IMG/VR virus record: IMGVR_UViG_3300008050_000026
Coordinates: 1-64,000 of that record
From: a virus
DNA: 64,000 bases
Direction: 5' to 3' (one strand)
The notes under the pieces are model-generated. The model was not told the origin of the DNA. It saw only the letters and a list, made by a program, of their open reading frames with translations, and did not search any database. Both the position numbers and the translations under genes were made by a program. Position 1 is the stretch's first letter. Each line of letters begins with the position of its first letter. This document shows, in pieces, positions 13,578 to 30,942 of this stretch.

Positions 13578-14978
13578 ATGTCTAAGAAAATCATAGCTAC
13601 CGATCACCTCCACGTAGCGAAGAACCTTGTTGAAATGTACAAGGGCAAAGAGGATTACAACTCAGAAAAAATTTCAGGTGTATTGGATTACAACCTTGAA
13701 AAAGGTATCATTGATGATGATCAATTCTGTAATGCTAAGGACCAATTGGATACCATTGAAAAAGGTAGGGGAAAGACAAAGAAGATCGGGGAGTTGGATA
13801 AATCAGGCAGGAATATTAAGACTGCCAATGGTTGGGTTCCAGTTAAACATGCTGCAAAAACACATGCAGGCGCAGCTGAAGCAATTGCCAAGAAACAAGC
13901 TGCGGGACTTGATATTTCAAACTATGGACTTGATGAATACCATAAGATCATTGACTCAGCTGTAAAATCAAGGAAAGGTTTCTATACTGGATCTGGATAT
14001 GATACAGATGTTGATTTATATGAAGAAAGGAAAGCATGGGGTGAAAGTTCAAGAAAAACTTACGCGATCTTAAATCTGTTTCATCCAAGAAATAATTTCA
14101 AATATGCATTAGGTCAACAGGATACGTTGGCTACTAAGGTTCTAATGGAAACAACCAATGGGAAAACTTGGAAGAAAGTTGAAGAGCAAGTAATTGGTCA
14201 TGGATATGGTGGTCAAGTTCTTAAAGGTAAGATGGGGCGAATTGATAGTGCATACAATGGGAATGACTATAACAAGTTACGTCTTTCTCCTACGTGGATA
14301 AAACATAGGGAAAATAAAGCTGCTGAAACTAAAGAAAAAGCTGAATTCAAAAATGATCTACTTTCAAAGATACCATTTGATAGTAAGGATGAAGCCAGAA
14401 TTAAAAATATCATTGCAAGGTCAAAAGGTTCAGATAATTCAGCAATGAGTTTTGCACAAAGTATGGCTAATTCTATTAAGGATCCTAATAAAGCTATTCA
14501 ACGAGCATCTGCAGCTCATTCATTAGGACATGGTAGAATAGCTGACATATTTCTTGAAGAGGCATTCAATCTTGGATATGTTTATGAAGAACCTTACTCG
14601 CCAAAGAAAAGGAAACGAGATGGTGAACCTAAGAACTATGGTAGACCTTCACCTATCCTACCTATAGGAAAAATCAATTTGAATACTGGATCTTCTAAAT
14701 ATTTCAATGTTTATGAAACGTGGGGTGAAGACTCAACCTATGAAATATACAAAGATCTTAATTCTGGATGGAGTGATGGATCTAAGAAAAATTACAAGAT
14801 CGTCGTAACATCAGGTAAATCACCTATAAATGATGTTGGTGATAAGGCAGGTTTCATACACGATCAAAATCATAGAGGATTATTTGATGGTGAAATGATA
14901 GACCATGCGACAGGTTCAGAATTAAAAAGGTTAGCAGCAACGTATGGTAATTCAATTTCAGGATACGTATACAAGTAA
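13578..14978 (+). CDS. putative capsid-internal cargo protein 1 (type I header)
   Basis: Leader ..TIEK|G then RGKTKKIGELDKSGRNIKTANGWVPVK; unique C-terminal domains. Confidence 0.6.
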   Translation: MSKKIIATDHLHVAKNLVEMYKGKEDYNSEKISGVLDYNLEKGIIDDDQFCNAKDQLDTIEKGRGKTKKIGELDKSGRNIKTANGWVPVKHAAKTHAGAAEAIAKKQAAGLDISNYGLDEYHKIIDSAVKSRKGFYTGSGYDTDVDLYEERKAWGESSRKTYAILNLFHPRNNFKYALGQQDTLATKVLMETTNGKTWKKVEEQVIGHGYGGQVLKGKMGRIDSAYNGNDYNKLRLSPTWIKHRENKAAETKEKAEFKNDLLSKIPFDSKDEARIKNIIARSKGSDNSAMSFAQSMANSIKDPNKAIQRASAAHSLGHGRIADIFLEEAFNLGYVYEEPYSPKKRKRDGEPKNYGRPSPILPIGKINLNTGSSKYFNVYETWGEDSTYEIYKDLNSGWSDGSKKNYKIVVTSGKSPINDVGDKAGFIHDQNHRGLFDGEMIDHATGSELKRLAATYGNSISGYVYK

Positions 14979-15937
14979 TGAACAACGAGGAAAAGCGCAT
15001 ATCGAATAATATTCTCAAATCCTATGGATTAGACATTGAGAAGGGTAGGGGAACCACCAAGAAAATTGGCGAACTTGATAAGTCAGGCAAGAATATCAAA
15101 ACTGCGAATGGCTGGGTACCTGTTAAAAAACATCAAGCAGGAGGTAGTTCTGAACCAAAAGAGGGAACAATAGCAAGTATCAAAAAAGTTGCAAGAAGTT
15201 TAGGTATACCAAACGATCCAAGTGGATTAAGCGATTTTGTATCTTGGACAAAACGAGGAGGATATGCTGGTGAAAAGAAGGTAGGCACTGTTTCAAGAAA
15301 AGCTATTGAACTTGGTTGGAAAGAGGAAAGCGATTACCATGATACACATCCAGCAAATGGAAATACATCAAAAGGTACAATATTTATCTCACCTGATGGT
15401 AAATTCAAATTAGATGCCAGTGTGTACTTTGGTGAAACTGCAAGCAAAAATGCTTATGGGTTAATGCTAAAAAGGGTTAAGGAGCCTGAAACAAAAGGTG
15501 ATGGTTCAGGACTTCTTGATAAAGTAAAAGAAAATCTGAGAAAAGAAAAACCTCTTACTGCGGCTGTAATTGCTGTGGGTGTTATTAACATGAATACTGG
15601 AATGACTGGTCATGGTTGGAGTATTTATGAAAACAAAGGAATGCATGCTTTCTTGACAGATCAAGGTTCATTGCTATTAGGAAATCCAAAAACATTTGAA
15701 GTTGGTAACAAGGACATAACTCTTAGAGACAATGACTCAAATAGGCGAAAAGAATATGGAGTTGAGATAATTGATAAAGCACCTTGTAATAAAGATGAGC
15801 TTTTAAGTATGCTTGAAAAACACAGGTATCATTATAAACCATTGAAAGCGTTTAGAAAAAGACCTGAGGGAAGTAGAAAATTACGTACATCATATTCTGT
15901 AAAAGGAACTGATCACACTGAAAATTGGAGAAAATGA
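14978..15937 (+). CDS. putative capsid-internal cargo protein 2 (type I header)
   Basis: MNNEEKRISNNILKSYGLDIEK|GRGTTKKIGELDKSGKNIKTANGWVPVK. Confidence 0.6.
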   Translation: MNNEEKRISNNILKSYGLDIEKGRGTTKKIGELDKSGKNIKTANGWVPVKKHQAGGSSEPKEGTIASIKKVARSLGIPNDPSGLSDFVSWTKRGGYAGEKKVGTVSRKAIELGWKEESDYHDTHPANGNTSKGTIFISPDGKFKLDASVYFGETASKNAYGLMLKRVKEPETKGDGSGLLDKVKENLRKEKPLTAAVIAVGVINMNTGMTGHGWSIYENKGMHAFLTDQGSLLLGNPKTFEVGNKDITLRDNDSNRRKEYGVEIIDKAPCNKDELLSMLEKHRYHYKPLKAFRKRPEGSRKLRTSYSVKGTDHTENWRK

Positions 15938-16674
15938 AACCAGTAGCTAAAGACGAACAGAACATTAAGAACCGTATTGCTGAAATGTATGGCAATAAGG
16001 ATGTTCCTACATGTGAAGCAATTGCGAAATCGCTTGGTAAAAAACTCAAATCGGGTGTTATTGATCAAACCTTACATGACAAGGCGATTAACCAACTTAA
16101 TGGTACTGTTGAGAAAGGTGATGATGGGGAACTTGAAAAAGCTCACAAATATGTTAGCAGGTCTGGATCTAAAGGTCATTATAAGTATGTATATCGAGAG
16201 CATGGAGAAAAACCAGCTACAAAACATTTTGATGTAGGTGATCACGTTATGACACCATTTTCAGGAACTATAGTTGTTAGTAAAGTTGAAGGAAATGTTA
16301 TTTGGGATCATAATGGAAGAAGGATCAGTGGTTTCCAATTAAAAGATGCTGAAATAATCGGTTCACCAGAAGCACGTAGGAGAAAGGCACAAACAATTCA
16401 AGATGCCCATAATGCCAAGATAAAAGCTGAAAAGCGAGAAAGGCAGGCAAATAAGATGACTGAAGCTAAATACAATGCAGCCATTAAAGAATGGGCATCG
16501 TCATTGGCTCATGATCTTGGTGACGAAGCAATGGAAAATGTAGGTGAAACAGTTGAGAATTTCATACTTGCTCATCCAAACGTTGTAGACTATATTGAAA
16601 ATAGAAACACGTATGGATACGATAACGACCCACCTGAACTTAGAATCCAATGGGACTTAGAAGGACAACTATAA
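15934..16674 (+). CDS. putative capsid-internal cargo protein 3 (type II header)
   Basis: ATGA overlap at 15934; ..ELEK|AHKYVSRSGSKGHYKYVY. Confidence 0.6.
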   Translation: MKPVAKDEQNIKNRIAEMYGNKDVPTCEAIAKSLGKKLKSGVIDQTLHDKAINQLNGTVEKGDDGELEKAHKYVSRSGSKGHYKYVYREHGEKPATKHFDVGDHVMTPFSGTIVVSKVEGNVIWDHNGRRISGFQLKDAEIIGSPEARRRKAQTIQDAHNAKIKAEKRERQANKMTEAKYNAAIKEWASSLAHDLGDEAMENVGETVENFILAHPNVVDYIENRNTYGYDNDPPELRIQWDLEGQL

Positions 16675-17978
16675 TGAACCAAGAGGAGCAACGCATATCA
16701 AATAATATTTCAAAGGCTTACGGTATTGATATCGAGAAGGCCAGAGGTAAGGTGAAGAAGATTGGTGAACTTGATAAATCTGGAAAGAATATCAAGACAG
16801 CCAATGGATGGGTGCCTGTGAAAAAACATGGTTCTACTTCAATCAAAAAGAAAGCTTCACCAAAACCTAAAAAGGCTAATGCATCTATTCAAGATGATGT
16901 TGCTGGTCCTGATAAAAAAGGAGGATCAAAATTACTTGGTTTTGAAACGTACGATGTTAAAACAAGAATGGATCGTGCAGTTCTGTTTAGCAACTATGAA
17001 GAAAAATACATGGCTGACCATTTTGAAACAAAATGGAAAAGTGATCTAAGCGACCACCAGAAGAATGAAATAAGGGAAGCATTCTTTGCAGATCATGGTA
17101 GAGGAAAAGATAGTGCTGATCCAGAAAAAATAAGCGAACTTCTTGGGGGTAAGTTATCAGAGAAAAATGAAGCTTTATTTGCAATTGAGTCATTTTACAT
17201 ACGCGATCACGAAAAAGGCAACTATACAGATGATATGCTTAATTCTGTAACTGAAAAGACCAAAAAGGTTGTTTCACTTATTGAAAAGAATAAAGATACG
17301 TTCCAAAACTTTATAGCATCATTATATCCAGATACTGAGTCAGCAAATCGTGTTGTTTTGAGATCAAAGGATTTTGACATAATTACAGACGATCTTAATA
17401 CTGCTGCTTTCAAAATGGAATACAGGCCTAAAAAATGGGATAGCAATAGACCAAACATTGGCTTCAAATGTGTTCTTTCAAATGGTAAGATCAATACCAA
17501 TTTGAAAGCAATGCAAACAAACACAGAAAATAGTTTGGCTCGTTTTCCAGACTCTGGAACAAAAGAGCGCCTTGAATTAGAAAAGAAACTGGTTGATAGA
17601 ACAGGAGGTGACTCATCATCTAATGCAAAACATGATGATGAGCTTATTGATCTTCAAAAAATTTATGATAATTATCATACGCTTTCAAGACATTCACATA
17701 AGCAATCAACATCAAATCTTAGTAGAAAGGATGAAAACACATTGCATTTCCACGTAGGTGATATTGGTAAGAAAAAACAAGTTCATGATACTATTAGGGA
17801 TGCATTTTCACTTAGCGTTCCATCTTCAATAGGTGATTACAAGTTACAGGGAATTACTAATGGTGAAAAAATAGTTTCAAAACGTGATCACATGAAGCGA
17901 GCTCTTGAGGTTAGGGAAAATGATTACAGCGAATATGAGAATGATTATAGTATAACGTATGTTTATACTAAGAAATAA
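16674..17978 (+). CDS. putative capsid-internal cargo protein 4 (type I header)
   Basis: TAATG start at 16674; MNQEEQRISNNISKAYGIDIEK|ARGKVKKIGELDKSGKNIKTANGWVPVK. Confidence 0.6.
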   Translation: MNQEEQRISNNISKAYGIDIEKARGKVKKIGELDKSGKNIKTANGWVPVKKHGSTSIKKKASPKPKKANASIQDDVAGPDKKGGSKLLGFETYDVKTRMDRAVLFSNYEEKYMADHFETKWKSDLSDHQKNEIREAFFADHGRGKDSADPEKISELLGGKLSEKNEALFAIESFYIRDHEKGNYTDDMLNSVTEKTKKVVSLIEKNKDTFQNFIASLYPDTESANRVVLRSKDFDIITDDLNTAAFKMEYRPKKWDSNRPNIGFKCVLSNGKINTNLKAMQTNTENSLARFPDSGTKERLELEKKLVDRTGGDSSSNAKHDDELIDLQKIYDNYHTLSRHSHKQSTSNLSRKDENTLHFHVGDIGKKKQVHDTIRDAFSLSVPSSIGDYKLQGITNGEKIVSKRDHMKRALEVRENDYSEYENDYSITYVYTKK

Positions 17979-17989
17979 GTAAATCAATA

Positions 17990-18856
17990 ATGGGAGAAAA
18001 ATACAATCCAGCTGACCTGCTAAAACAAAATAGGCAGGATAGAGTTAATCCATACGAAAGTGATGGAGGACTTCAAAAAGTAGGTGAGACCTATGGCAAG
18101 ATGATTTCCTTGATGAATGAGAATTTCAACAAGGGAAAAATTGATGAAGCGTTATGCAACAGGGGCTTCGAACAACTGGATGGGTTGATTGAAAAGGCAG
18201 GTCATAGGTATATTCGTAGAGAAGGTACTCCTGGGAATTACAAGTATGTGTATGCTGAAGATGCTAAAAAAGGCGATCACGTAAAAACCACCCAACATAA
18301 TGATAAAAATCTAAGCAGAACAAAAGATACTGTTAAAGATCTTCGTATGACTGGTAAAATGTCAAAAGAGGACTATAAAAAGTATCTTGATGGTGGAGGT
18401 AAAGAAACTGATTATGTTGATCATGGTAAAAAAGAAAAATCTATTTCTGAAGAATACGATACTGAGTTAAAAAGACTTAAGGGTCTCAAGGCAAAGGTTG
18501 ATGATCGAGCTGATAAGACGCATAACTATGCTGAAGGGAAACAGCTGTTAAAAGAAAGTGATAAACTTAAAAATCAGATCGAAAAACTTGAAAAGGAGAA
18601 CAAGCAACAATCTTCAGAACCTGAAGAAAACGATTTTGAACCAGATGGAAAAATTCGAAGTAGACTAAAGATGAATTTGAGTCTTGATACAGAAGATCTT
18701 AATACATTCATTGACTCAATAAAAAATCAAGATCTTGAAGACAAAGTGTTTGGATTATTCACAGGATGGTCTAATAGTAGGGAACAAGGTGAGATGTATG
18801 AAAGAATAGAACGCGAACTTGATATGGCGGGTTATGATGCAGCACATTTGGATTAA
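17990..18856 (+). CDS. putative capsid-internal cargo protein 5 (type II header)
   Basis: ..QLDGLIEK|AGHRYIRREGTPGNYKYVY. Confidence 0.6.
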   Translation: MGEKYNPADLLKQNRQDRVNPYESDGGLQKVGETYGKMISLMNENFNKGKIDEALCNRGFEQLDGLIEKAGHRYIRREGTPGNYKYVYAEDAKKGDHVKTTQHNDKNLSRTKDTVKDLRMTGKMSKEDYKKYLDGGGKETDYVDHGKKEKSISEEYDTELKRLKGLKAKVDDRADKTHNYAEGKQLLKESDKLKNQIEKLEKENKQQSSEPEENDFEPDGKIRSRLKMNLSLDTEDLNTFIDSIKNQDLEDKVFGLFTGWSNSREQGEMYERIERELDMAGYDAAHLD

Positions 18857-18879
18857 AGGTTAGTTGTTAATAAAAATCG

Positions 18880-18887
18880 TAAATTTG
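18880..18887 (+). promoter_or_regulatory. Bacteroidota-type -7 promoter element
   Basis: TAAATTTG in gap before 18907. Confidence 0.6.
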
Positions 18888-18906
18888 TTGAAATTCAGTA
18901 GATAAA

Positions 18907-21714
18907 ATGGACGCATTGGAAGAACTTACAGGAGGCAACCTTACAGAACAAGCTAAGGATAGGATCTCAAAATCATATACATCCAGAGTAGGCGAACGAA
19001 AGATTGCCACAACTGCCTTAGCTGTAAAGACCCTCAACGATAATTTCAATAAGGGACTAATAACTGAAGACCATCTTGAAAAGGCATTCAAACAACTTGA
19101 TGGTATCATCGAGAAATCATTTCATAAGTATCTAAGTCGAGCTGGAACCCCAGGGCATTATAAGTATGTCTACCTTGAAGACCAAAAGAAAGCTGGTCAA
19201 AAAAAAAGAACAGAGGTTGATGTAGAAGGTTCAGGAACAGATGCTTCATTAGATGCACAAGCCGATAAGATTGTTCAAAGTTCAATTGATAGATATAACG
19301 ATCGCCACAACCAATTACTGTTCCATCCAAGTAGATTGCTTGAACGTTCTGTGAAACATGGTTTCATTACTGAGGAGCAATCTAATAATGAAGATTTCAT
19401 TGCTGCTGCCGAAGAGGTTGCTGAACGTTGGACCGAGGATCAGGATCCAGATGGTGATTTTGGTTCATCTGATTTTACAGCAGCTCTGGCAGATTTTATG
19501 GATGAAGCAGGCATCGCTTATCATCGAGGTGAAAGACATGAACTTAAACCAGGGCCAAAGGTAGTAAGCGATGCTGAAGTAAATGAATTAAAAGACCCAT
19601 CTGACCCAGGCTTTACTATCACAGGTGAATATGAAGGTAAACCAGTAGAATTCTCAGGTGAGCAACTTCAAAATGCTATGGATGGTGCTTTCCATAGTGC
19701 AAATACCCCAATGGATTTTGCTATTAAAGTTTTATATGCAGTAACTGATCAGACAAGCGAAATATCAAACGAAGATATGTCAAAGTTAGAATCGTGGTAT
19801 TCAGCAGAAAAAGATAGGTTACGTGGAAGAGGAGATAAGGAAGACGAAGCTGATACTTCATATAAGGGAGCAAATACTGCATTGGCAAAAATTACAGATC
19901 TTGTGAAAGATTGGTCTGGTGATACAATTACAGAAGCTGAAGTTTTATCAGTAATTGAAGCAGCCGATGATTACGGTGTTGAAGAAAATATGTTCAGAAT
20001 AGAACATCCTCGAAATCAAGATGAAGAAAGCAGAAGAGTAAATTTTGCTACTGATTACATTACAAGAAATATTCCTGAAGGGATGTGGTTACATACTATG
20101 GAGCGATCAGATGTTCGTGATATTGTATGGGGAATGGTGATGGCAAAAAGAGGTAATAACAGTATCAAGATATTTGATGCATTAAAAAAATCTGATGTTG
20201 ACATTGATATTTTGAAAAAAGGTAATTCAACACCATTCGTATTTACTGAAGAACAAGATGCATTCCTATTCAATGTGTTTGACATCATGAAAGGTGCTCC
20301 ATCAGGAAAGATTGCTAAGAAGGTCACTGTCAAAAAGAAAGATGGTGGGACTTACATGGCAACACGTTATTTCAGCCAAGAGGAGATTGATGAAATGGAA
20401 ACAAAAGGTACCACCCAAGAGGAAATGGATACCGATACATCCAATAAGATCTATGAAATATTAGAAGGGAGCAAAGCTAAATCAGCTCAACTTCGTCAAT
20501 TGATTGAAATAGGTATTCATAATCCATTCCATTTGATGGCAATGAATACTGATTACAACGAGTCAAATGTATCTCATTATCTTAAGGAGGCAGGAATTGA
20601 TCCAAAGTCATTTGGTTTTGGTAAGAAAAGAAAAGCTGCAACTGTGAATGACGATGGTTCAATTGAATATGAGGAGGACGATGACGAACCAAATCAAAAT
20701 GAATTGGAGCAGGAGATAGAAGCAATGCTTCGAGCTGATGGTTTGCTTTTTGATACTGATCTTATGGAAGCAAATGCTGAAACAGGAAAAGATGCTGTAG
20801 ATACTGTTCAGGATAAATTTGTCAACAAGGTAGCAAAAGGTGAAGCTAAACTGGCTATGATATATGGCACAGGAGGTGTTGGTAAAACATGGGGAGTAAA
20901 ACAAACTATGACTAACCCATCTGTTAAGGATGAATGGGGAGAAGAATTTGGCAATGAGTTAGTAGAATATGACTCAGAACTTCAACCAAATTCTGAAGAA
21001 TACGATTTCATAAAGTTCACAGGTCAAATATCACCTTCAAAACTTTATCGCGCATTGTATGAACACAATGGCAAAATTCTTATGCTTGATGACTGTGATG
21101 CTGTTCTACAAGATAGAACAATGGTGGATATGCTTAAAGGTGCTACAGATACAACATTGGAAGATATTGTTTGGGATGGTATGCCTATCAAACCTACAGG
21201 AGCTGATAAGGATACACCACCACTCCCTACGCGCTTCAAATTCAAAGGGGGCATTATATTCATATCGAATATGACTGAAGAAAAATTAAGACAAACTGCA
21301 TCACCTCTATTAGACTCGAGGGCACTTTCGCTTAATGTATCAAGAACAAAGGAACAGACAATTGACAAACTTGATCGTATCAAACAACACATGGAGTTTG
21401 AAGATACAAAAGGCAATGTCATAGAAGTTTCGCCAGAGTCAAGGGACGCTGCGGTTGAATTTGTGAAAAAATGGTCTAAGTATGCTGATATTGCTAAGAT
21501 CAACGCAAGAACGTTTGGTTCATTGGCAAAGGATTATGAAAGTTCAAAGTATAACGGTGTAGAAGGTTTCTTAAAATCACATTCAGCTCGATCAATAATG
21601 AATGTCCTTGATCATCAGGTTAAGAAGTACATTTATACTGAAAAGAAAAAGGAAATGAAAGCGGCAAAGGATAAAGCTGCTTTGATGAAGTCAATACATA
21701 ATCATATAGGATAA
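18907..21714 (+). CDS. multidomain cargo polyprotein with C-terminal AAA+ ATPase
   Basis: Type II header after IIEK|S; internal DIMK|G plus type III header; Walker A GTGGVGKT (20866-20889), Walker B ILMLDD, IIFISN, LDSR. Confidence 0.7.
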   Translation: MDALEELTGGNLTEQAKDRISKSYTSRVGERKIATTALAVKTLNDNFNKGLITEDHLEKAFKQLDGIIEKSFHKYLSRAGTPGHYKYVYLEDQKKAGQKKRTEVDVEGSGTDASLDAQADKIVQSSIDRYNDRHNQLLFHPSRLLERSVKHGFITEEQSNNEDFIAAAEEVAERWTEDQDPDGDFGSSDFTAALADFMDEAGIAYHRGERHELKPGPKVVSDAEVNELKDPSDPGFTITGEYEGKPVEFSGEQLQNAMDGAFHSANTPMDFAIKVLYAVTDQTSEISNEDMSKLESWYSAEKDRLRGRGDKEDEADTSYKGANTALAKITDLVKDWSGDTITEAEVLSVIEAADDYGVEENMFRIEHPRNQDEESRRVNFATDYITRNIPEGMWLHTMERSDVRDIVWGMVMAKRGNNSIKIFDALKKSDVDIDILKKGNSTPFVFTEEQDAFLFNVFDIMKGAPSGKIAKKVTVKKKDGGTYMATRYFSQEEIDEMETKGTTQEEMDTDTSNKIYEILEGSKAKSAQLRQLIEIGIHNPFHLMAMNTDYNESNVSHYLKEAGIDPKSFGFGKKRKAATVNDDGSIEYEEDDDEPNQNELEQEIEAMLRADGLLFDTDLMEANAETGKDAVDTVQDKFVNKVAKGEAKLAMIYGTGGVGKTWGVKQTMTNPSVKDEWGEEFGNELVEYDSELQPNSEEYDFIKFTGQISPSKLYRALYEHNGKILMLDDCDAVLQDRTMVDMLKGATDTTLEDIVWDGMPIKPTGADKDTPPLPTRFKFKGGIIFISNMTEEKLRQTASPLLDSRALSLNVSRTKEQTIDKLDRIKQHMEFEDTKGNVIEVSPESRDAAVEFVKKWSKYADIAKINARTFGSLAKDYESSKYNGVEGFLKSHSARSIMNVLDHQVKKYIYTEKKKEMKAAKDKAALMKSIHNHIG

Positions 21715-21947
21715 TGGCTAAAGAAGAAAAAACACCAGAAAAAGAAGTTGCTGAAAAAGGTAGTAATACCGAAAGTTCAGGATTGGATTTATCAAATGAA
21801 ACTGATGAGTCACTTAATACAACTTTAAGGGTTATGATGAGAATATATCCACATCAAACAACCCCTGTAATGCAGGCGTATTATGATGAGCTTCAAAAGC
21901 GTGGTGTAAAAGCACCTGAAAAGGAAACAGAAAAAGATGCTGCATAA
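21714..21947 (+). CDS. small hypothetical protein
   Basis: 77 aa; TAATG coupling. Confidence 0.6.
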   Translation: MAKEEKTPEKEVAEKGSNTESSGLDLSNETDESLNTTLRVMMRIYPHQTTPVMQAYYDELQKRGVKAPEKETEKDAA

Positions 21948-21949
21948 CC

Positions 21950-24472
21950 ATGGCAAAAGTAATGCCTGTAGGTACTGTACGTCACTGGAAAAAAGGTGAT
22001 GTAATAAAAGCACATGATGGTACAGCCATGCATTCAGGCTGGATAGGCCTCGAATCTCCAGAACATTTAAGACAAGTTTTCAAGGAAGCAGATACGTTAG
22101 CAAATATTCTGTATAAGAAAAAAGAGCCAATCAGTGGTGAAGTTTACCTTGATCATGAATTGAGGGAAGTAAAAAGACCACCAGATAAGAATTCAGGTCC
22201 TTATTCACCAGACAAATTCAAGATCTACGAAGGTTTCTATGGTGCAGGCAAATATTCGTTCTTCAATGAGTTTTCAAGGTTATTCATGGCCAAGAAAATT
22301 GAAGCACAGGAGTATTATATAGATATGCTTCGAAGATACAATAGGGAGGAGAAGCAAGGGAACGATAGACTTGATAGAACTTCATCTGATGAAAAGAAAA
22401 TGATAAGAAGGCGATCTAAAGAGTCGTTTGTCTTTTCAGGTGAAGAACTTAATGAAGGAGATGCACATGATATTGTAGCCTTAGTCAAAAAGGTATACAA
22501 GCACATGGAAAAAGGTATGAAGCTTGAACCTGATGAAAAAAAGGTTTATGATAAAGCAGCTGCCTTAGTTGATGGATTACCAATTAACTATGTAAGGTTG
22601 AAAGAAGCCATGCGTAGAAAGGAACTTGCTGTTAAGTTAATAGGTAAGAAATTTCCAGATAACTGGGCCATTCGAGAGTCATTCAGAATAAAGGCGACTG
22701 AGAAACTAAATGAATATCTTAAGAAATATAAGGATAGGATAGCTGAAGACGAAGCCAAGGATCAAGAAGCTACATTTGGTGTATCGTTGGATGCTCCAGT
22801 CGATGAGTTCTATGAAGCTGTATATGATAAGATTGATGGCGAACTTCATAAAGTCAAGAATTTTGATTTTGAGACATTAAAAGGTAAGAAGCACGATATT
22901 GTAATGAAAGGTGCTTACAATGGTGAACCTACACATGATTGCGTAGTTATTGACTGGAAAAAAATGATTGAAAAAAATTCAGATCTTCAAGCTGAATTTC
23001 CAGAGGCAACATATTGGATAGGTAAACCAAAACCAAAAGATAAAGAAAGTGATCCTCAGTTATATTATATGTCTCCAATCGAACCAGAGGATGAGCTTTA
23101 TTACAAAGCGCAGTTTCATCAAATGAAATACCCATTTGCTGAATTGGTCAAATTAAGATTTGCGACTAAGTACCAAAAGGAACTTGATGGTAATTGGACG
23201 TTTGATCTACTTCCAGCAATGGAAAACATTGAAAGGGCTCTTACAGGCTTACCAGAAGGACATGTATTGAACAATAAATACATTGAAACGTTCTCCCAAC
23301 AATCATTTAATGGGGGATCACATGGAGGTTATGCTTGGTTCAGTGACCATGATAGTAAGATAAATTTCTCAGATGAATGTGCAAAGCATGCAAGTATCTG
23401 GGCAAGGAGTTCAATTGCACCTGAGTTCAAAGCTACATTATATCATGAAATAGGTCATGGAGTAAGTAAAAGGTTTGGGCGTGATGGGAACCTTGATTAC
23501 AAGAAATTCACAGTTGCCGCAGGTTGGTCATATCATCAAGCTGAATTAAGAGCTGGTTTTACAAGAACAGGTGATGATAAGAATTTACCAAGACATGGTT
23601 CAAATTCTGGTACTAAGTTATTGACAGCTTATGCGCATAAATCACAGGAAGAAGCTTTTGCTGAATATTATTCAATCTATAACCTTCATAAGGATGCAAT
23701 TGATAAATGGTTAGAAACAGGTGAGTCGAAACATCTTAAAGAAACCTATGCTGTTGAGGTACCTATGAAGATTGAGAAGAAACAGTTGAAGGAATATTTC
23801 AATGATGGTTCAAATTGGGCTTTATCGTCTCAAATTAAAAATCGCTTGATTGATTTTAAGGGTAGAAACAAGATAAATATTCAAGAACATCTCGGTTTAG
23901 ATCTTATTTCACCACATAGGTGTTCAACAGTAAAGACTGAGAAAAATAAATACAGTCCTCCAAAGGTCCTTGGAAGAAAACATAGGCAAGCACATTATGT
24001 CCCACCAGTTGTAGCAGTAAAAGACAAGAATAAGTATAAATTACTCGATGGTGTTAATAGGCAAAAGGAGTTTATGTTGAAACATAAGATGATGCCAGCT
24101 CAGTTAATATCTCAGGAGCTTTATTCACAAATGAAGAAAAACGATTTTACTGACGAGGAAATTACAGGTATCGTATCATTTCATTTGAAAGATAGTATGG
24201 TACCTATTCAGGTTTCGCAACCTGTTAAAAGAGAGGGATTGATGTACAGGAACAATGTTCTTGATTATAAGGATCTTGAAAAGAACATCCAGCCCATAAG
24301 GGCTATGAAGAAAATATTTCACAGTTCAGCTTTAGTGAAGGCATTAGGAGAAACATTTGGAATAGTAAAACAAGGCCATGAACAAGGTATTGTGACCGAT
24401 GTTGATTATTTTAATGCCATCGTTAAGTATAATGAACATCGAGAAAAATTGTTAAATGGAAGAACCAGTTAA
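21950..24472 (+). CDS. multidomain protein: zincin-like metallopeptidase plus ParB-like domain
   Basis: LYHEIGH (HEIGH at 23444-23458) with downstream YAHKSQEEAFAE; PPVVAV..YKLLDGVNR; N-terminal PVGTVRHW header-like motif. Confidence 0.7.
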   Translation: MAKVMPVGTVRHWKKGDVIKAHDGTAMHSGWIGLESPEHLRQVFKEADTLANILYKKKEPISGEVYLDHELREVKRPPDKNSGPYSPDKFKIYEGFYGAGKYSFFNEFSRLFMAKKIEAQEYYIDMLRRYNREEKQGNDRLDRTSSDEKKMIRRRSKESFVFSGEELNEGDAHDIVALVKKVYKHMEKGMKLEPDEKKVYDKAAALVDGLPINYVRLKEAMRRKELAVKLIGKKFPDNWAIRESFRIKATEKLNEYLKKYKDRIAEDEAKDQEATFGVSLDAPVDEFYEAVYDKIDGELHKVKNFDFETLKGKKHDIVMKGAYNGEPTHDCVVIDWKKMIEKNSDLQAEFPEATYWIGKPKPKDKESDPQLYYMSPIEPEDELYYKAQFHQMKYPFAELVKLRFATKYQKELDGNWTFDLLPAMENIERALTGLPEGHVLNNKYIETFSQQSFNGGSHGGYAWFSDHDSKINFSDECAKHASIWARSSIAPEFKATLYHEIGHGVSKRFGRDGNLDYKKFTVAAGWSYHQAELRAGFTRTGDDKNLPRHGSNSGTKLLTAYAHKSQEEAFAEYYSIYNLHKDAIDKWLETGESKHLKETYAVEVPMKIEKKQLKEYFNDGSNWALSSQIKNRLIDFKGRNKINIQEHLGLDLISPHRCSTVKTEKNKYSPPKVLGRKHRQAHYVPPVVAVKDKNKYKLLDGVNRQKEFMLKHKMMPAQLISQELYSQMKKNDFTDEEITGIVSFHLKDSMVPIQVSQPVKREGLMYRNNVLDYKDLEKNIQPIRAMKKIFHSSALVKALGETFGIVKQGHEQGIVTDVDYFNAIVKYNEHREKLLNGRTS

Positions 24473-24593
24473 AAAGTGGAAGATCACATACGGTAACCTT
24501 GAAACAGAAGATTACGAGGGTACATTCAATGAAGCGTATGATCATGCTATGGTTAAGAGTAAAGAATTCGAAATTCTACCAGCTGATGAATGA
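24456..24593 (+). CDS. small acidic protein (45 aa) absent from ORF track
   Basis: MEEPVKKWKITYGNLETEDYEGTFNEAYDHAMVKSKEFEILPADE; overlaps both neighbours by a few nt. Confidence 0.55.
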   Translation: MEEPVKKWKITYGNLETEDYEGTFNEAYDHAMVKSKEFEILPADE

Positions 24594-27500
24594 TATAATC
24601 GAAAAATCACCTGCTGGTGTCTACGTAAACAATCCAAAGAATAAAAAGTTGGGTAGGGTAGGTGCCAGATATGGTACGTCAAAGACTGCAGGTGAATATT
24701 ATGGCAAGACTGTTAAGCATTTCAAGGAATATTCAAATGCAATAAATAACATCGCTTCAGAACTCGGAGGTGTTGCAATAGTAGCCCCACCTAAAAAACT
24801 TGAAAGAGTTCAGTATAAAGCCAAACATGAATACGGTGGTGATTTCAAAAAGGTCAAAGACATTTTAAGATCAACAATCGTAATAGGTAGAAGTAAAGCG
24901 TTGGAGCTTTGTGATACGATAAGGAAAAAATACCCATGCGTAAAAGCTTATGTAAATTTTAGTTCAGAAGGGTACCAAGGTGCCAATTTTGTATTTTCAT
25001 TTAAGGGATTTCCAGTTGAACTTCAAGTCAATACTCCAGTCAATATGGTTTTGAAACAAGGCCATGATGATAATCCTGCGTTGAAAAATGCTTATGATAT
25101 GATCAACAGTGCTGGTATACCTACTGGACTTGGTCATAAGTATTACGAAAAGTTAAGACAGGCTGGATTATCTGAAGAAACAAATACTATTGGTACTAAT
25201 TTGATGAACAAGTACTATAACTATAGGGAACTGTTCATGTTGCGTGATGAACTTACAAAGGCTTCAAAACATGGCCATGGTAAAAAAAGAAAACCCATTG
25301 TTGTTTACAATAAGAAGACTGGCAAGACATATACAAGGAACCAGATTGTAGGTGACAAACTTGAAGAACATGAGACTAAGCATCCCATAAACGAGTTCTT
25401 AAGAGGTTTAACAAAATTGTCAGCTGGCAAACAAGCCGAATTCTTCAAATGGGAAAGGGACAATGCAAAATACGTTGAAGTAAATCCAATAAGCGATCTA
25501 CCTCAAGATGTTCAAGATAATATTTGGGCAACAGGTCCTAAGATCAAAGAATGTTTTGGTAATTCTGCAAGGATCGCGATGGGAGGTATAAAGGGAGCTA
25601 AATATGTTGAAGGCTTCGTTTCTTTTGCAGGAGTGATACCTTTGGAACATGCTTGGGTCAAAATTGGAGACAAATATTACGATCCAACAGCTGAAGGTCC
25701 TTTGAAAGGAGGATCAGACATGGGACATTATACAGCATTGATTGAACTCAATGAAGATGAGGTTCTTGATTATATGGTAAAAGAAAGGAAACATGGACCT
25801 TGGGTAGGTTCATATTACTATAATAATAACGTTATGAAGAAAGGACTACTATCTACTTTGTTGAACCCATTTACTAAATTATTCGATAAACCAGAGTATC
25901 CTGAAAACATCTGTAAATCCTCAGATGAGACGACATTCAAGAACTATGCTGACTGTATATTAGTAAATGAAAAAGGTCAGCTTCTTCTACTCCTACGTGC
26001 TGATGGTGATTTTTATCCGAGACACTGGTGTTTGCCTGGGGGTAAAATAGAACAAGGGGAAACACAGGATGAAGGTGCTCTACGTGAATTGCTCGAGGAA
26101 ACAAACATCAAACCAGTAGGTTACAACTTCTTACGAGAATATGATAATGGTGATGGTACAACTTCAAGCTATTATGAAGTCCATTGCAGTGAAAATGATT
26201 TGATGATACTTGATAACAGTGAGCATTACAACTGGTGTTGGGTAGATCAAGTTGAATTAGAAAAGTTACCTTTGATACTAAGTTTACAGGAAAGGCTTGT
26301 AGATTTATTGCCATTGACAACATTCGGTATGTTTCAAGCAAACCCTTTTACAATGACTTCAATAATCGAACAAGAGACCAATAATATTTCACCACAGTTA
26401 CAGGCCAAGCATCAAAAAGAAGATGCTGCATATTACATTATTAAAACTGCCTATGATAATGGCCAACTTGGGGAGGCAGCATTCTTGAAAGCTTCATCGC
26501 AATATACTGAAATCAAAAAAGGACGCCCTGCACAAATTGGTGAGATACGAGAATGGGGAGGAGTTAAGAAACAAAAAACTGCAAATGGATGGGTCCCAGT
26601 TAAATCAGGTAAGAAAGGAGCTAAAGTTGAGGATGAGGGAAAGGATGAGAAAACTGCAAAACCAGAGGATGAAAAAACTCAACATTCTGAAGAGGAACTT
26701 GCTGGACATGCTCAAAACGCTTCTGAAGCTGACCTAAAGAAAACAGTTAGTAATTCCAAGGATGAGAAATTAAGGGTTGCTGCACAAAAGGAGCTTCAAC
26801 GTCGAACCGAACAATCTGATGAGATTACTGGTAAGAACAAAGATGAGGATGCTGATGGTTGGGCTAAGAAAGATGGTGAGGATAAGAAAGGTGCTGGCGG
26901 AGAAGCAAAAACTCCCGAACATGATTATTCTGAAGATGAAGATGGATTTCATGAACAAGTTTCAAGAGCAAGAAAAGCTTATGACAATCCAATGGATGAT
27001 AAGATGAAGGATCATGCAAAGTCTTTCCTTGATGGGGCAAAAGACCATAAGAAGAAAATGGGCTTTGGTTCAGAACCTGAAGACAAATCTGTTGAAAAGG
27101 AGAAATCTGATAATGCAAAAATGAAACAAGTCATGGATTTCCTTGATGGAGAACATGGTGGTGCTTCATTAGAACCAGTAAAAGGCAAGCCAGGGTTGTG
27201 GCGAGACTCAGAAAACGATATTCTTGATAAGAAAGACATAATTGCTCTTCACGAACAGTTTGATAAAGAAGGCTTGTTTGAAGAAGAGGGAATAAGCCCT
27301 GATAGTGGAAAAGATGACGATGGTTATCAAGAATGGTTAGAGAGCAGGAATTGGCGAAAACCACAAGCAGAGATTGATGCAGAGGAAAAAGCAAAGAAAG
27401 AAGAAACAACTGAAAAAGCTGGAGATCAATTATTAGAAGACTTGGGAATTGGTTATTCAACAGATACTTACAGCATATTTTTATCAGATGGGGTAAGTTC

Positions 27501-27771
27501 TAAGACTACACCAACAACTCTTGATAAAATGAAAAAGAATGGTGAAGATTTTGTTGAAGATAAAGAATTCAATCTAAGTCAATTGGAAGGGTTTATTGGT
27601 GGAGAAGACAAAATGAAAGAAGCTGTTAAGAAACGAGCAGCAAAAGAAAAAGTTTCCAATGACGAAATGATGTGGGCAGATAATTACACCGAAACCCAAG
27701 AAAAATTAAAAACCGCAAAAGATGGTCTTAGTAAAATAGAAGCTAAGATGGGTGAAACTAAAAAGAAATAG
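24586..27771 (+). CDS. cargo polyprotein: RelA/SpoT-type synthetase, transglutaminase/papain-like domain, Nudix hydrolase, acidic domain
   Basis: ATG 24586 (MNDIIEK|S); K..R...K, DILRST, GYQG, VELQVNT, GHKYYE; KECFGNS/EHAW/YDPT; Nudix box GKIEQGETQDEGALRELLEETNI. Confidence 0.8.
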   Translation: MNDIIEKSPAGVYVNNPKNKKLGRVGARYGTSKTAGEYYGKTVKHFKEYSNAINNIASELGGVAIVAPPKKLERVQYKAKHEYGGDFKKVKDILRSTIVIGRSKALELCDTIRKKYPCVKAYVNFSSEGYQGANFVFSFKGFPVELQVNTPVNMVLKQGHDDNPALKNAYDMINSAGIPTGLGHKYYEKLRQAGLSEETNTIGTNLMNKYYNYRELFMLRDELTKASKHGHGKKRKPIVVYNKKTGKTYTRNQIVGDKLEEHETKHPINEFLRGLTKLSAGKQAEFFKWERDNAKYVEVNPISDLPQDVQDNIWATGPKIKECFGNSARIAMGGIKGAKYVEGFVSFAGVIPLEHAWVKIGDKYYDPTAEGPLKGGSDMGHYTALIELNEDEVLDYMVKERKHGPWVGSYYYNNNVMKKGLLSTLLNPFTKLFDKPEYPENICKSSDETTFKNYADCILVNEKGQLLLLLRADGDFYPRHWCLPGGKIEQGETQDEGALRELLEETNIKPVGYNFLREYDNGDGTTSSYYEVHCSENDLMILDNSEHYNWCWVDQVELEKLPLILSLQERLVDLLPLTTFGMFQANPFTMTSIIEQETNNISPQLQAKHQKEDAAYYIIKTAYDNGQLGEAAFLKASSQYTEIKKGRPAQIGEIREWGGVKKQKTANGWVPVKSGKKGAKVEDEGKDEKTAKPEDEKTQHSEEELAGHAQNASEADLKKTVSNSKDEKLRVAAQKELQRRTEQSDEITGKNKDEDADGWAKKDGEDKKGAGGEAKTPEHDYSEDEDGFHEQVSRARKAYDNPMDDKMKDHAKSFLDGAKDHKKKMGFGSEPEDKSVEKEKSDNAKMKQVMDFLDGEHGGASLEPVKGKPGLWRDSENDILDKKDIIALHEQFDKEGLFEEEGISPDSGKDDDGYQEWLESRNWRKPQAEIDAEEKAKKEETTEKAGDQLLEDLGIGYSTDTYSIFLSDGVSSKTTPTTLDKMKKNGEDFVEDKEFNLSQLEGFIGGEDKMKEAVKKRAAKEKVSNDEMMWADNYTETQEKLKTAKDGLSKIEAKMGETKKK

Positions 27772-27773
27772 TT

Positions 27774-27781
27774 TAGATTTG
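27774..27781 (+). promoter_or_regulatory. Bacteroidota-type -7 promoter element (near-leaderless)
   Basis: TAGATTTG 5 nt before protease ATG. Confidence 0.55.
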
Positions 27782-27786
27782 TAAAG

Positions 27787-29430
27787 ATGAAAGCTGCAAA
27801 AGATAACTTCAAATTCTTTATACCTGCCGATTTTGTAAAAGGCATTGATGATGATGGTCATGAGACTATGATGATCAAGGGAGTAGCTTCTACCAATAGA
27901 AAGGACTCACAAGGTGAAATACTCGATGTGAATGGTTTCGATCTTACTGATTTCTCGGTTATCAATTGGAACCATAAGGGAAAGGATGACGCAGGAGCTA
28001 TAATTGGCGAACCTACCAAAGCTGAGGTAAAAGGGAACAAGTTATTGATTGAAGGCATGCTTTATCCAGAAATGCCAATGGCGAAAGCTGTATTCAATTT
28101 AATGAAGGCATATAAGAACTCCCCTACAGGAAAACAACTTGGACTATCAATTGAAGGAAAGGCATTGTCAAGAGATAATGTAAACCCAAAGAAAATCAAT
28201 AGGGCCAAAGTAACAGGGGTTGCAGTATGTCCACATCCTATAAATGGGGATACAACTGTTGAACTATTGGAAAAAAGCTTTACACATGGAGATTTCGAGT
28301 TTGATGAAGATGAACTTGAAAGTGTAGAAAAAGCAAATGACTTCTGGTCCTTAATAGATAGTGATAGCAAATTCAAAGAATATGTTACTTCTAATAATAA
28401 GGAAGACAGAGCTGGTGGTGAAATTGGCGATATTACTGAGATAGAAAGGAATAGATTACTTAAAGCTTATACGGCAGCAGGTAACGTTCACGTATCTAAG
28501 GAGTCAGTAGAACACGATCCAAAAGGCATTGTAGATGGTAAAAAGAAAAATTTATCAAAATCTGATGTCTACGAAAAGATTTTTGATTATTTTGGTCCCG
28601 TCGAAACAAAAACGGCTCAAGGAATATACTCGTTAGTAGATAAAATTTCAACTATGGAAAAGCAACCTATCTCAGAAGACACTCTCAAAAAAGCAGAAGA
28701 AATCCTTAACCTTTCAACTGAGGAACTTATTAAGAAAGCAGCAGAAGATGGAGGCGATAAGATAAGTGATGATGATGAAGGTGACAAGAAAGATGGCGAA
28801 TATGAGGGAGAGGATGGAGTAGAAAAAGCAGAAGCATTTGCAAAATCAGAATTTGCAAAAGGAACCAAAGAAGCTGACATCGTCAGTACCTTAACTAAGG
28901 GAGGCCTTGGAATTGAAAAGGCACAAGCATGTGTCAAATCATGTGTTGCTGAAGCCAATCGAAAACGAGAAGGTGGAGACGTTACGACTTTGAAAAAATC
29001 ATTTGATGAGCAAACTGACATCATAAAAGGTTTCGGTGTTTCAATGGATCAAAAATTCTCAGCTGTCCTTGATATTATGAAAGGACAATCTGAAAAGATT
29101 AGCTCACTCGAAGAAATAAATAAAGGATTGGCTTCAGAAATTGAAGCATTTGGCAATTCAGGTGCCAAAAGGAAATCCGTTCCATCATTGAAGATGATCG
29201 AAAAATTCGAAAAATCTGTTGATGGTTCAGAAACGTATCAACTATCCAATAAGACTTCACGAGGATTACTTGTATCTCGCATCAATGAGGCTTCAGGCTT
29301 GAATGGTGGAGATCCAGATAAAGTGAATATGGCACTTGCAAGGGTAGCACAAGACATTGAATTGACCCAATCGGTTACTGCACCAGGGCTTCAGTTATTG
29401 AAGTCGCATCAAATCGAGGTTATCAAATAA
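27787..29430 (+). CDS. prohead protease fused to scaffold
   Basis: IKGVAST..DSQGE, INWNH, IIGEP, GLSIEG, VAVCPHPIN; charged helical C-half; directly upstream of capsid gene. Confidence 0.88.
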   Translation: MKAAKDNFKFFIPADFVKGIDDDGHETMMIKGVASTNRKDSQGEILDVNGFDLTDFSVINWNHKGKDDAGAIIGEPTKAEVKGNKLLIEGMLYPEMPMAKAVFNLMKAYKNSPTGKQLGLSIEGKALSRDNVNPKKINRAKVTGVAVCPHPINGDTTVELLEKSFTHGDFEFDEDELESVEKANDFWSLIDSDSKFKEYVTSNNKEDRAGGEIGDITEIERNRLLKAYTAAGNVHVSKESVEHDPKGIVDGKKKNLSKSDVYEKIFDYFGPVETKTAQGIYSLVDKISTMEKQPISEDTLKKAEEILNLSTEELIKKAAEDGGDKISDDDEGDKKDGEYEGEDGVEKAEAFAKSEFAKGTKEADIVSTLTKGGLGIEKAQACVKSCVAEANRKREGGDVTTLKKSFDEQTDIIKGFGVSMDQKFSAVLDIMKGQSEKISSLEEINKGLASEIEAFGNSGAKRKSVPSLKMIEKFEKSVDGSETYQLSNKTSRGLLVSRINEASGLNGGDPDKVNMALARVAQDIELTQSVTAPGLQLLKSHQIEVIK

Positions 29431-29466
29431 ACAATCGTTAAAGAAACAAGTTAAAGACTAAAAGCT

Positions 29467-30942
29467 ATGGACGCAAAATTAGCAGATTATTTAGATGTCG
29501 AAGGCTTTGGCAGCGAAGGCGGAGTTGAGGAACTCTTGAAAGCGATGCAAGCTGGTGCTATTACAGGTCGTGATACCACAAATCAGGCATTAACCCAGGA
29601 ACCACTCAAAGTGGAAAGCTTGGAAACGACCCTTAAACTTCTTGATTTCAGGATGAAAGATATTCGCCTGATGAACAAGATGCCAAAACTTACAGCCTAC
29701 AACACGGTTGAAGAGTTCTTGCAACTTGAAAGCTATGGAGCTGATCGAGGGGGTTTCTATAACGAAGGAGAACTATCCGATGTTGAGGATAGCACTTACG
29801 TAAGACGTTCTGAACTTATCAAGTACATCCAAGTTACGGGTGAGGTTACCTTGCAAGCTCAGATGGTTCGTTCTTATGTGGATGCGATGAGGAAAGAGGT
29901 TGAAAACAAGACCATGTGGGTTTTGCGAAAAGCCAACTCAGCAATGACCAAAGGAAATGAAGATCATATCGGTCAGGAATGGAACGGACTTTATAAACAA
30001 CACGCAGCAATTGGTGTTGGTGCCGGCTTCCTATATAATACTATAGAGGAGTATTACAATTCCAATGTAGTGATTGACCTTCGTGGAAGATCATTGGTCC
30101 AACAAGATGTTGAAAATGCAGCTGTTATCGTGGATGACAACTACGGAACTCCAACTGATCTATTTGCTGTCCCAGGTGTTATCTCAGCTCTGGCCCAAGA
30201 TTATTACCAAGACCAACGTATCCTACAACAAGGAACGGCAGTTAATGGTGTAATTGGTACTTCGCCAAAAGCTATCTCCACAACTATGGGGGATGTGGCT
30301 TTGAGTTCTGATAAGTTCATGGCGCAACAAGGACAACGTCAAACAAAATTGCTTACGGATGGAGCAACATCGACCAAAGCACCAAATTCGCCAGTAACTG
30401 GTGGAGCACCTGCAGTGGTTGTTGATCCAATTTCCAAATACATTGCGGCAGAAGCTGGAAATGCTTTCTATGCTGTTAGTGGTATCAATCGATTTGGTGA
30501 ATCTGCATTGACCATATTAGATGCTGCGGCAGTTGCGATAGTTGCTGGAGGAGCTGTTGATTGTACATTTGTATCTGGTGGAGGAGCAGTTCCGGCAACA
30601 GGTTACACTATTTATAGAACATTGATAGGTGCACCAAGCACAGGAACCTTCTATCCAATCTTCACTGTTTCGGCAGCTGAAGTTGCTGCAGGATACGATG
30701 GAGGTGGTGTTGGAGTTATTAGAGATCGAGGGCGAGCTCTTCCAAACACTGAAACTGCATTCATGACAGAAATGATAGATGATGTCCTTTCATTGAAACA
30801 ACTTGCACCAATCTCGAAATTGGATCTTGCTGTATTGTCAATGAGTAGACGTTTCATCAACTTCATGTTTGCAACGCCACATTTGTATACTCCACGAAAG
30901 CTTGTGAAGTTCATCAACGTTGCCACTACCCTCACACCATAA
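29467..30942 (+). CDS. major capsid protein
   Basis: 491 aa; EELLK|AMQAG propeptide, LKVESLE motif of SPO1/K-like capsids; followed by terminator. Confidence 0.92.
   Translation: MDAKLADYLDVEGFGSEGGVEELLKAMQAGAITGRDTTNQALTQEPLKVESLETTLKLLDFRMKDIRLMNKMPKLTAYNTVEEFLQLESYGADRGGFYNEGELSDVEDSTYVRRSELIKYIQVTGEVTLQAQMVRSYVDAMRKEVENKTMWVLRKANSAMTKGNEDHIGQEWNGLYKQHAAIGVGAGFLYNTIEEYYNSNVVIDLRGRSLVQQDVENAAVIVDDNYGTPTDLFAVPGVISALAQDYYQDQRILQQGTAVNGVIGTSPKAISTTMGDVALSSDKFMAQQGQRQTKLLTDGATSTKAPNSPVTGGAPAVVVDPISKYIAAEAGNAFYAVSGINRFGESALTILDAAAVAIVAGGAVDCTFVSGGGAVPATGYTIYRTLIGAPSTGTFYPIFTVSAAEVAAGYDGGGVGVIRDRGRALPNTETAFMTEMIDDVLSLKQLAPISKLDLAVLSMSRRFINFMFATPHLYTPRKLVKFINVATTLTP

Follow-up and report, generated by a model that had tools for sequence, protein, structure and literature searches.

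A Tas1-like synthetase and a Nudix hydrolase in one modular protein encoded beside the capsid gene of an uncultured phage

Modules of the reading frame at 24586-27771

An open reading frame (ORF) of 1061 amino acids lies at 24586-27771 of a 64,000-nucleotide stretch of viral DNA (hereafter the window; positions 1 to 64,000 of IMG/VR virus record IMGVR_UViG_3300008050_000026), directly upstream of a gene for a prohead protease fused to a scaffold-like region, which is followed by the major capsid gene. The source genome is that of an uncultured phage; its record is 97,074 bp long, is estimated to be 96% complete and carries every gene on the + strand. The original prediction for the window had read an alarmone synthetase and a Nudix hydrolase in one precursor here, and both indeed fall within a single open frame. 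We call the product P0001 (an identical full-length sequence is on record in the protein collection) and refer to homologous proteins and to loci by P and L numbers. The frame, its parts and a small neighbouring ORF are as follows.

24586-27771, + strand: putative polyvalent cargo ORF of 1061 residues (P0001), from the ORF list and its translation
24586-24606, + strand: leader MNDIIEK, ending at a putative protease site between K7 and S8, from motif sharing and enrichment
24607-25260, + strand: predicted Tas1/Apk-like adenosine 3'-pyrophosphokinase ((p)ppApp synthetase) module, residues 8-225, from phmmer, AlphaFold2/Foldseek and catalytic residues
25261-25842, + strand: middle module, residues 226-419, a basic beta-hairpin header and a domain with conserved Cys323, His355 and Asp366, from homologs in L152 and L160
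25843-26520, + strand: Nudix hydrolase module, residues 420-645, from PF00293, phrog_1198 (E 5.8e-20) and orthologs upstream of capsid genes
26521-26604, + strand: header motif GRPAQIGEIREWGGVKKQKTANGWVPVK with a shared KTANGWVPVK core, after a putative site between K645 and G646
26605-27768, + strand: charged low-complexity C-terminal tail with a HAQNASEADLKK...RVAAQKELQRR motif and a putative site between K944 and A945, from motif sharing
24456-24593, + strand: acidic ORF of 45 residues and uncertain status, whose stop overlaps the ATG at 24586; proposed earlier as a candidate antitoxin

Translation of P0001 likely starts at the ATG at 24586, because this is the start chosen by the gene caller, it overlaps the stop of the 45-residue ORF and it aligns with the N-terminus of the homolog P0002. 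Other in-frame starts at 24499-24544 are possible and, if one of them were used, the 45-residue ORF would be spurious.

The synthetase module opens with the header GVYVNNPKNKKLGRVGARYG, and its core match covers nucleotides 24676-25164, in agreement with the earlier placement at 24700-26300. A phmmer search against PDB sequences returned Tas1 (6ox6_A) at E 3.8e-17 over residues 31-193 with 29% identity, the sole non-Nudix match. An AlphaFold2 model of residues 1-230, built on a 16-sequence alignment, reached a mean predicted local distance difference test (pLDDT) score of 87.9, and with this model Foldseek placed Tas1 on top (E 3.6e-13; template modelling (TM) score 0.68 on the model and 0.80 on Tas1), the remaining matches listed at E <= 0.001 being other RelA/SpoT synthetase structures. 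Invariant in the 16-sequence alignment are K70, R74 and K78 (PKKLERVQYK), D92, R95 and T97 (DILRST), Y130 (GYQGAN), E145, Q147 and N149 (ELQVNT), and G183, H184 and Y187 (GHKYYE). All five motifs on which the RelA/SpoT call had been based are thus invariant syn motifs, K70, R74, K78, D92, R95, Y130, E145, Q147 and H184 align to Tas1, and the call is borne out. The Pfam model RelA_SpoT misses the domain even at E 5, a level at which no Pfam model matches the synthetase, the middle domain or the tail.

The assignment can be narrowed to the Tas1/Apk (p)ppApp type rather than the tRNA-pyrophosphorylating type. A GxN in syn3 in place of SxH, together with an RxT in syn2, separates adenosine from guanosine 3'-pyrophosphokinases (PMC12226406). 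Since both adenosine-type signatures can be read in P0001 (GxN in GYQGAN, RxT in DILRST), its synthetase would be expected to make (p)ppApp. That it would instead pyrophosphorylate tRNA at its 3'-CCA end and block translation, as CapRel, FaRel2 and PhRel2 do, appears highly improbable. The RelA/SpoT homolog (RSH) synthetase fold is the same and CapRel and FaRel2 are among the Foldseek matches, but both rank far behind Tas1 (CapRel at E 3.6e-5 and TM 0.31), Tas1 is the only PDB sequence match for the domain, and the signatures are of the adenosine type.

Tas1, or Apk1, is a PAAR-linked type VI secretion effector of Pseudomonas aeruginosa (PDB 6OX6). It is the closest known match to the module by both identity and TM score on the target, with the catalytic Asp, Glu and basic residues and the EhQVN motif in common. 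The phage protein differs from Tas1 in lacking a delivery domain of the PAAR or Rhs kind and a neighbouring Tis1, and it is encoded in a phage head module rather than a type VI secretion system.

Residues 1-230 were also scanned against 1.84 billion representative proteins, which yielded 429 relatives at E <= 1e-3; in most of them the Tas1-like domain is C-terminal in a longer protein. P0002 joins the domain to a kinase-like region and to a region that matches DUF3626 in the homolog P0003, P0002 itself matching no Pfam family. The homologs P0008-P0010 are stand-alone synthetases, and the metagenome scan yielded just one stand-alone gene, which is P0009-like (L067). The header motif YxDNxxNRxLGRVG recurs as 9-12 tandem copies before a eukaryote-type Ser/Thr/Tyr kinase domain in P0024 and P0032, two unrelated database proteins.

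The middle domain keeps its Cys, His and Asp residues in a stand-alone homolog in L152 and in a homolog inside a polyvalent ORF of 1419 residues in L160. Its AlphaFold2 model, built on three sequences, was poor (pLDDT 51), and Foldseek gave nothing below E 0.3, several of the weak rows being papain- or transglutaminase-like cysteine proteases. A word-index homolog search found nothing at near lengths, and the leads from the ESM Atlas, which were YunG-like, were all weak (under 0.85). The domain is possibly papain- or transglutaminase-like, which we take as a lead only.

The Nudix module matches PF00293 at E 9.3e-17 (61.7 bits against a cut-off of 21.1) over residues 454-560, nucleotides 25945-26265. 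A near-canonical Nudix box had been proposed at 26041-26109, and this too was confirmed: the box reads G-x5-E-x7-REL-x-EE-x-N-I against the reference form GX5EX7REUXEEXGU, and is canonical save for an Asn in place of the penultimate Gly, a change also found in relatives. The catalytic glutamates are intact because the box retains the REUXEE core, and its ending, EETN[IL], is clade-specific. The nearest NCBIfam models are MutT and NudG, with RppH and others also matching, all far below their cut-offs (best MutT, 38.6 bits against 97.9). T4 was absent among the phage records matched at E 1e-5, so that an assignment to the T4 NudE type is unsupported; the relationship to NudE was not tested directly.

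Head-module setting and putative protease sites

The following genes define the surroundings of P0001.

27787-29430, + strand: prohead maturation protease (residues 2-168) fused to a scaffold-like region (phrog_1028, E 1.2e-36)
29467-30942, + strand: major capsid protein (phrog_752, E 1.9e-68), 60% identical to the protein of Chryseobacterium phage MA9V-3
21950-24472, + strand: putative cargo protein of 840 residues, in the same block as the ORF at 24586, from motifs read in the sequence and a homolog in L152
1320-3035, + strand: portal gene

Alignment of the capsid protein brought up 17 related viral loci, 53-66% identical. The protease, used as a single sequence in a locus search, recovered no relatives, and tblastn against 50,697 phage records gave Nudix matches only and no close relative. 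Phage MA9V-3 is syntenic, its portal protein being 46% identical.

The 840-residue protein encoded upstream of P0001 has an HEIGH zincin-like motif and a ParB-like LLDGVNRQ motif, and found no match in a Pfam search. At least six consecutive genes at 13578-21714 of the window share N-terminal leader, site and header elements, with headers of two types (KIGELDKSGxNIKTANGWVPVK, and QLDGxIEK plus HKYxxRxGTPGxYKYVY), and look like a head-cargo protein family. The KTANGWVPVK core that follows the Nudix module of P0001 recurs near the N-termini of genes 13578, 14978 and 16650; header motifs occur in at least seven genes of the cargo block, and related ones stand behind the Nudix of MA9V-3, P0003, P0011, P0016 and P0017. 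The tail motif HAxNxS...RxAAxxELxRR is common to P0006, P0011, P0016, P0017 and L160, and the BLAST match of P0001 to L147 and L154 reaches residues 743-770.

Each module of P0001, like those of its homologs, is preceded by a hydrophobic-x-[E/K]-K sequence followed by G, A or S. P0001 has IIEK↓S at K7, ELTK↓A at K225, VMKK↓G at K419, EIKK↓G at K645 and TTEK↓A at K944 (the arrow marks the putative cut). LEK↓A or IKK↓A is found in P0002, P0008, P0009 and P0006, stand-alone or fused homologs in which an xxLEK↓[AS] leader again stands before the header motif, and IEK↓S precedes the end header of the MA9V-3 Nudix. Counted as [LIVMFT][EK]K[GAS], with expectations from shuffles, the site motif occurs 24 times in the block 13578-29467 against 7.9 expected, an approximately 3-fold enrichment, and 16 times against 9.7 in the remaining genes. 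The scaffold part of the protease protein alone holds 8 copies against 1.1 expected, the first of them (ELLEK↓S) right behind the protease domain. Stand-alone homologs have their two ends at the borders that these sites draw, with lengths of 220-246 residues for the synthetase, about 190 for the Cys-His-Asp domain and 210-236 for the Nudix.

The idea of a precursor, put forward in the original prediction, is therefore plausible, given the position upstream of the protease-scaffold and capsid genes, the site motifs at the module borders and the enrichment in the block. P0001 is probably cut by the prohead protease.

An alternative is that P0001 is not virion cargo and acts as a cytoplasmic multi-enzyme protein, produced in the course of infection, that reprograms host nucleotide metabolism from inside the cell, its motifs being linkers rather than protease sites. 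The case for packaging is indeed indirect, and, with transcription running in a single direction throughout the genome, position alone does not fix the timing of expression. Two non-structural products, an FkbM methyltransferase and a holin-like protein, are also encoded between the portal gene and the block. Against this, the place immediately upstream of the protease-scaffold and capsid genes is conserved in relatives, the site motifs are common to the scaffold and enriched there, and fusions of Nudix to head proteins have been noted before (phrog_15528, annotated as a portal protein; PMC9503650). An unregulated Tas1-like enzyme in the cytoplasm would, moreover, exhaust the ATP needed for DNA packaging. 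We consider the cytoplasmic alternative rather unlikely.

The holin-family protein and the FkbM-type methyltransferase lie at 4524-5138 and 8762-10123 of the window, so the stretch from the portal gene to the cargo block is not purely structural. The N-terminal peptide of the capsid protein, ELxKAMxAGxITGxDTTNQxLTQxPLK, is copied inside other head-module proteins of relatives (L151:438-1799, L157/L158:3582-6878 and L159:8236-9084), which include a Nudix protein and protease fusions, and the copies may be a shared targeting or cleavage element. A copy sought in P0001 gave just an insignificant match, at residues 1000-1042 (E 1.9). The 1098-residue ORF at L157/L158:3582-6878 joins a prohead protease domain to a homolog of the ATPase-like C-terminal part of the window gene at 18907-21714.

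The Nudix module in relatives and its relation to the synthetase

In 13 of the 15 loci whose sequence extends upstream of the protease, a Nudix ORF lies no more than about 10 kb upstream of the capsid gene, in most cases immediately preceding the protease gene, and in the two apparent exceptions the Nudix is found in larger ORFs slightly further upstream. Ten of these Nudix ORFs are confirmed by Pfam. The Nudix-bearing ORFs upstream of the capsid gene, present in MA9V-3 and in all 13 related records that are informative there, range from 210 to 2065 residues. In MA9V-3 (235 residues, at 88496-89203) and L153 the Nudix stands alone; the other loci have it joined to a homolog of gene 21950 in a single ORF (L152), to a 2H/Acb1-like phosphoesterase (L154) or to DUF3626 (L155), and the L160 ORF combines it with the Cys-His-Asp domain and with ParB-like and GNAT-like parts read from motifs. 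The synthetase catalytic domain was found in none of the 15 related records searched whole.

Among 46 other IMG/VR records with a Tas1-like domain, any Nudix is present in 2, against 18 with a small alarmone hydrolase (SAH) of the HD type, and the closest synthetase homologs, P0002 and P0008-P0010, have no Nudix. P0011, P0016 and P0017 do combine a Nudix with a Tas1-like domain, which in these proteins is C-terminal, the order opposite to that in P0001, and they share the header and tail motifs of the clade. These three proteins read as further promiscuous fusions to a resident Nudix.

The fused Nudix had been proposed to neutralise the synthetase, hydrolysing its product in the uncut late precursor until the two are parted by cleavage in the head and the toxin is thereby armed. 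Both domains do occur in one chain, in two orders, in four representative clusters (P0001, P0011, P0016 and P0017); the nearest NCBIfam models, MutT and NudG, are those of enzymes that degrade ppGpp to pGp in E. coli (PMC7593582); and an adjacent immunity gene is not recognisable. The comparison of genomes speaks against such a role: the Nudix is kept at the locus by relatives that lack the synthetase, joined to unrelated partners; it is rare among Tas1-like viral records, in which SAH genes are more frequent, and missing from the closest synthetase homologs. The present genome, in addition, encodes an SAH of its own. Nudix action on ppGpp strips the terminal phosphates and does not regenerate the NTP, and for this reason the Nudix would not be expected to reverse the ATP depletion that the present synthetase may cause. 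Taken together, these data do not support the Nudix as an antitoxin in cis, and we regard this explanation as unlikely. A literature search found no paper linking Nudix to (p)ppApp immunity, and neither the survey of 1,369 Apk1 homologs (PMC12691689) nor the Aph1 paper mentions Nudix.

The other role considered originally, that the Nudix may destroy defence signal nucleotides, fits the comparative data better than the cis-antitoxin role. In L154 (3925-5736) the orthologous Nudix is fused to a 2H phosphoesterase weakly similar to the anti-CBASS protein Acb1, a hint that the locus targets nucleotide signals.

The small adjacent ORF and the alarmone hydrolase

A toxSAS-type (toxic small alarmone synthetase) adjacent antitoxin has the 45-residue ORF at 24456 as its sole candidate. 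The ORF proposed originally is present; beyond its position nothing supports the role. It has no homolog among the loci fetched (L001-L163) and no Pfam or PHROG match, and it does not resemble the small ORFs found behind the stand-alone Tas1-like genes of L005 and L072. It was also stated that no separate antitoxin is recognisable, which is true within the window and does not hold for the whole genome, in which we found the following gene.

Genome 93766-94275 (L164:1465-1974), outside the window, + strand: stand-alone SAH of 169 residues, HD_4 (PF13328), E 6e-13, 45.6 bits against a cut-off of 27.2

This is the only HD_4 gene found by a PF13328 search of the whole genome. The large terminase gene is 8.7 kb upstream of it, the end of the record that precedes the portal gene is about 4 kb further on, and the HD motif is intact, with LHDALED and CDRIAN present. 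In the PDB it matches Mesh1, bacterial SAHs and Rel hydrolase domains and, weakly, the (p)ppApp hydrolase Aph1; cleavage of both (p)ppApp and (p)ppGpp by Mesh1-class enzymes is described in PMC7644958. No HD_4 SAH was found in the 15 related records. Among the 46 other Tas1-like records, the 18 with an HD-type SAH include 7 of the 16 that are at least 90% complete. Calculated from the printed coordinates, the distance to the synthetase is no more than roughly 1 kb for about 15 of these 18 SAHs; for three giant polyvalent ORFs the SAH is 16-17 kb off, and in the present genome it is likewise distant. The SAH is most likely the product-hydrolysing counterpart of the synthetase, and the pairing resembles the published Apk2-Aph1 pair (PMC10083569, PMC12226406) and the SAH antitoxin of FaRel (PMC7229694).

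Phages of about 100 kb (L005:9571-10905, and also L006, L007, L072 and L082) carry a compact trio, in which an SAH-like gene and a stand-alone Tas1-like gene are accompanied by an overlapping ORF of 74-76 residues, which may be a binding-type immunity protein.

We therefore favour, with somewhat better than even confidence, the interpretation that 24586-27771 encodes a polyvalent head-cargo polyprotein whose modules would be injected and act independently, the SAH serving as the counterpart of the synthetase. The polyprotein would comprise four independent modules, namely a Tas1/Apk-type adenosine 3'-pyrophosphokinase, the Cys-His-Asp domain, a MutT-like Nudix pyrophosphohydrolase and the charged tail. 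Made late, alongside the protease-scaffold and capsid proteins, it would enter the prohead, the prohead protease would cleave it at hydrophobic-[E/K]-K↓[G/A/S] sites, and the modules would be delivered with the DNA into the next cell. There the synthetase would convert ATP and ADP to (p)ppApp and drain the adenylate pool. The Nudix, the conserved core of the locus across the phage clade, would act independently of the synthetase and most likely on a host nucleotide, a nucleotide signal or an RNA cap, and the synthetase would be a variable add-on acquired by the present phage.

Several points weigh against this interpretation. The packaging, cleavage and injection that we infer rest on gene position and motif statistics. 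On the record about 66 kb separate the SAH from the synthetase, a distance that would shrink to about 28 kb in a circularly permuted genome, and the link between them is a correlation drawn from one genome set against 15 relatives, the majority incomplete; alternatively, phage SAHs could act against the stringent or toxSAS responses of the host. The pairing of Nudix and Tas1-like domains in P0011, P0016 and P0017 could reflect functional coupling, and Nudix action on (p)ppApp is chemically possible because MutT and NudG hydrolyse ppGpp (PMC7593582).

A more elaborate, and distinctly unlikely, version of events is a two-step strategy in which host energy is first sequestered and then recovered. 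The virion-delivered Tas1-like enzyme would turn host ATP and ADP to (p)ppApp within seconds of entry and thereby stall ATP-dependent defences and host synthesis, the phage SAH, made after entry, would return (p)ppApp to ATP and ADP for replication and packaging, and the co-delivered Nudix would clear a competing nucleotide signal.

Known systems and the place of the locus

The nearest published counterparts are the Apk2 proteins, MuF-fused (p)ppApp synthetase toxins of temperate phages that are accompanied by IapK/Tis1-like and Aph1 immunity (PMC10083569, PMC12226406). In common with Apk2, the locus places a Tas1-like adenosine 3'-pyrophosphokinase among the head genes of a phage whose genome also has an HD-type alarmone hydrolase. 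The differences are considerable. MuF (PF04233) has no match in the 1061-residue protein or anywhere in the present genome; the synthetase is N-terminal here and C-terminal in Apk2, and here it is joined to the Cys-His-Asp domain, the Nudix and the tail. The hydrolase is unlinked here and adjacent in Apk2, no Tis1/IapK-like gene was recognised, and the gene directly downstream is the prohead protease rather than the immunity genes iapK and aph1. Whereas Apk2 phages are temperate, the present phage may be virulent, since no tyrosine integrase was found in its genome (serine integrases were not searched).

RelA/SpoT domains are known among the modules of phage polyvalent proteins (Iyer et al. 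2017, PMC5512222). P0001 resembles these in uniting several unrelated enzymatic domains in one chain encoded with virion morphogenesis genes, and in the module shuffling between relatives, which was observed directly. It differs from them in that its presumed processing seems to be linked to a prohead-protease-like motif and not to an embedded zincin peptidase, no Pfam LPD or PolyVal model of PMC5512222 matches P0001, and that paper names Nudix once, as an InPase-domain partner outside polyvalent proteins. Head-packaged, injected phage Nudix proteins have likewise been predicted (Burroughs et al. 2022, PMC9503650), in late or head clusters or fused to head proteins as here; what sets the present module apart is that its nearest models are MutT and NudG and that it has the clade-specific EETN[IL] ending and a C-terminal header motif. 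The toxSAS systems with SAH antitoxins (FaRel-ATfaRel; PMC7229694) also combine a toxic RSH synthetase with an SAH able to degrade its product, but the present case is no two-gene operon, the toxin lying inside a structural-module polyprotein.

Apk2 toxins have already been described, as have RelA/SpoT-containing polyvalent proteins and Nudix proteins associated with phage heads, so that the kind is known although the specific architecture is new, and we regard the finding as incremental rather than surprising. Whether phage (p)ppApp synthetase toxins ride in virions and are injected has been asked explicitly (PMC10083569). The present locus sets a Tas1-like domain in a different delivery frame, with no MuF, a seemingly protease-processed polyprotein and an unlinked alarmone hydrolase, and it bears on what restrains such a toxin, be it the Nudix, the SAH or a small ORF. 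In this group of Bacteroidota-type phages the Nudix is a clade-wide element of the head module, which supports the prediction that Nudix enzymes may serve as packaged effectors.

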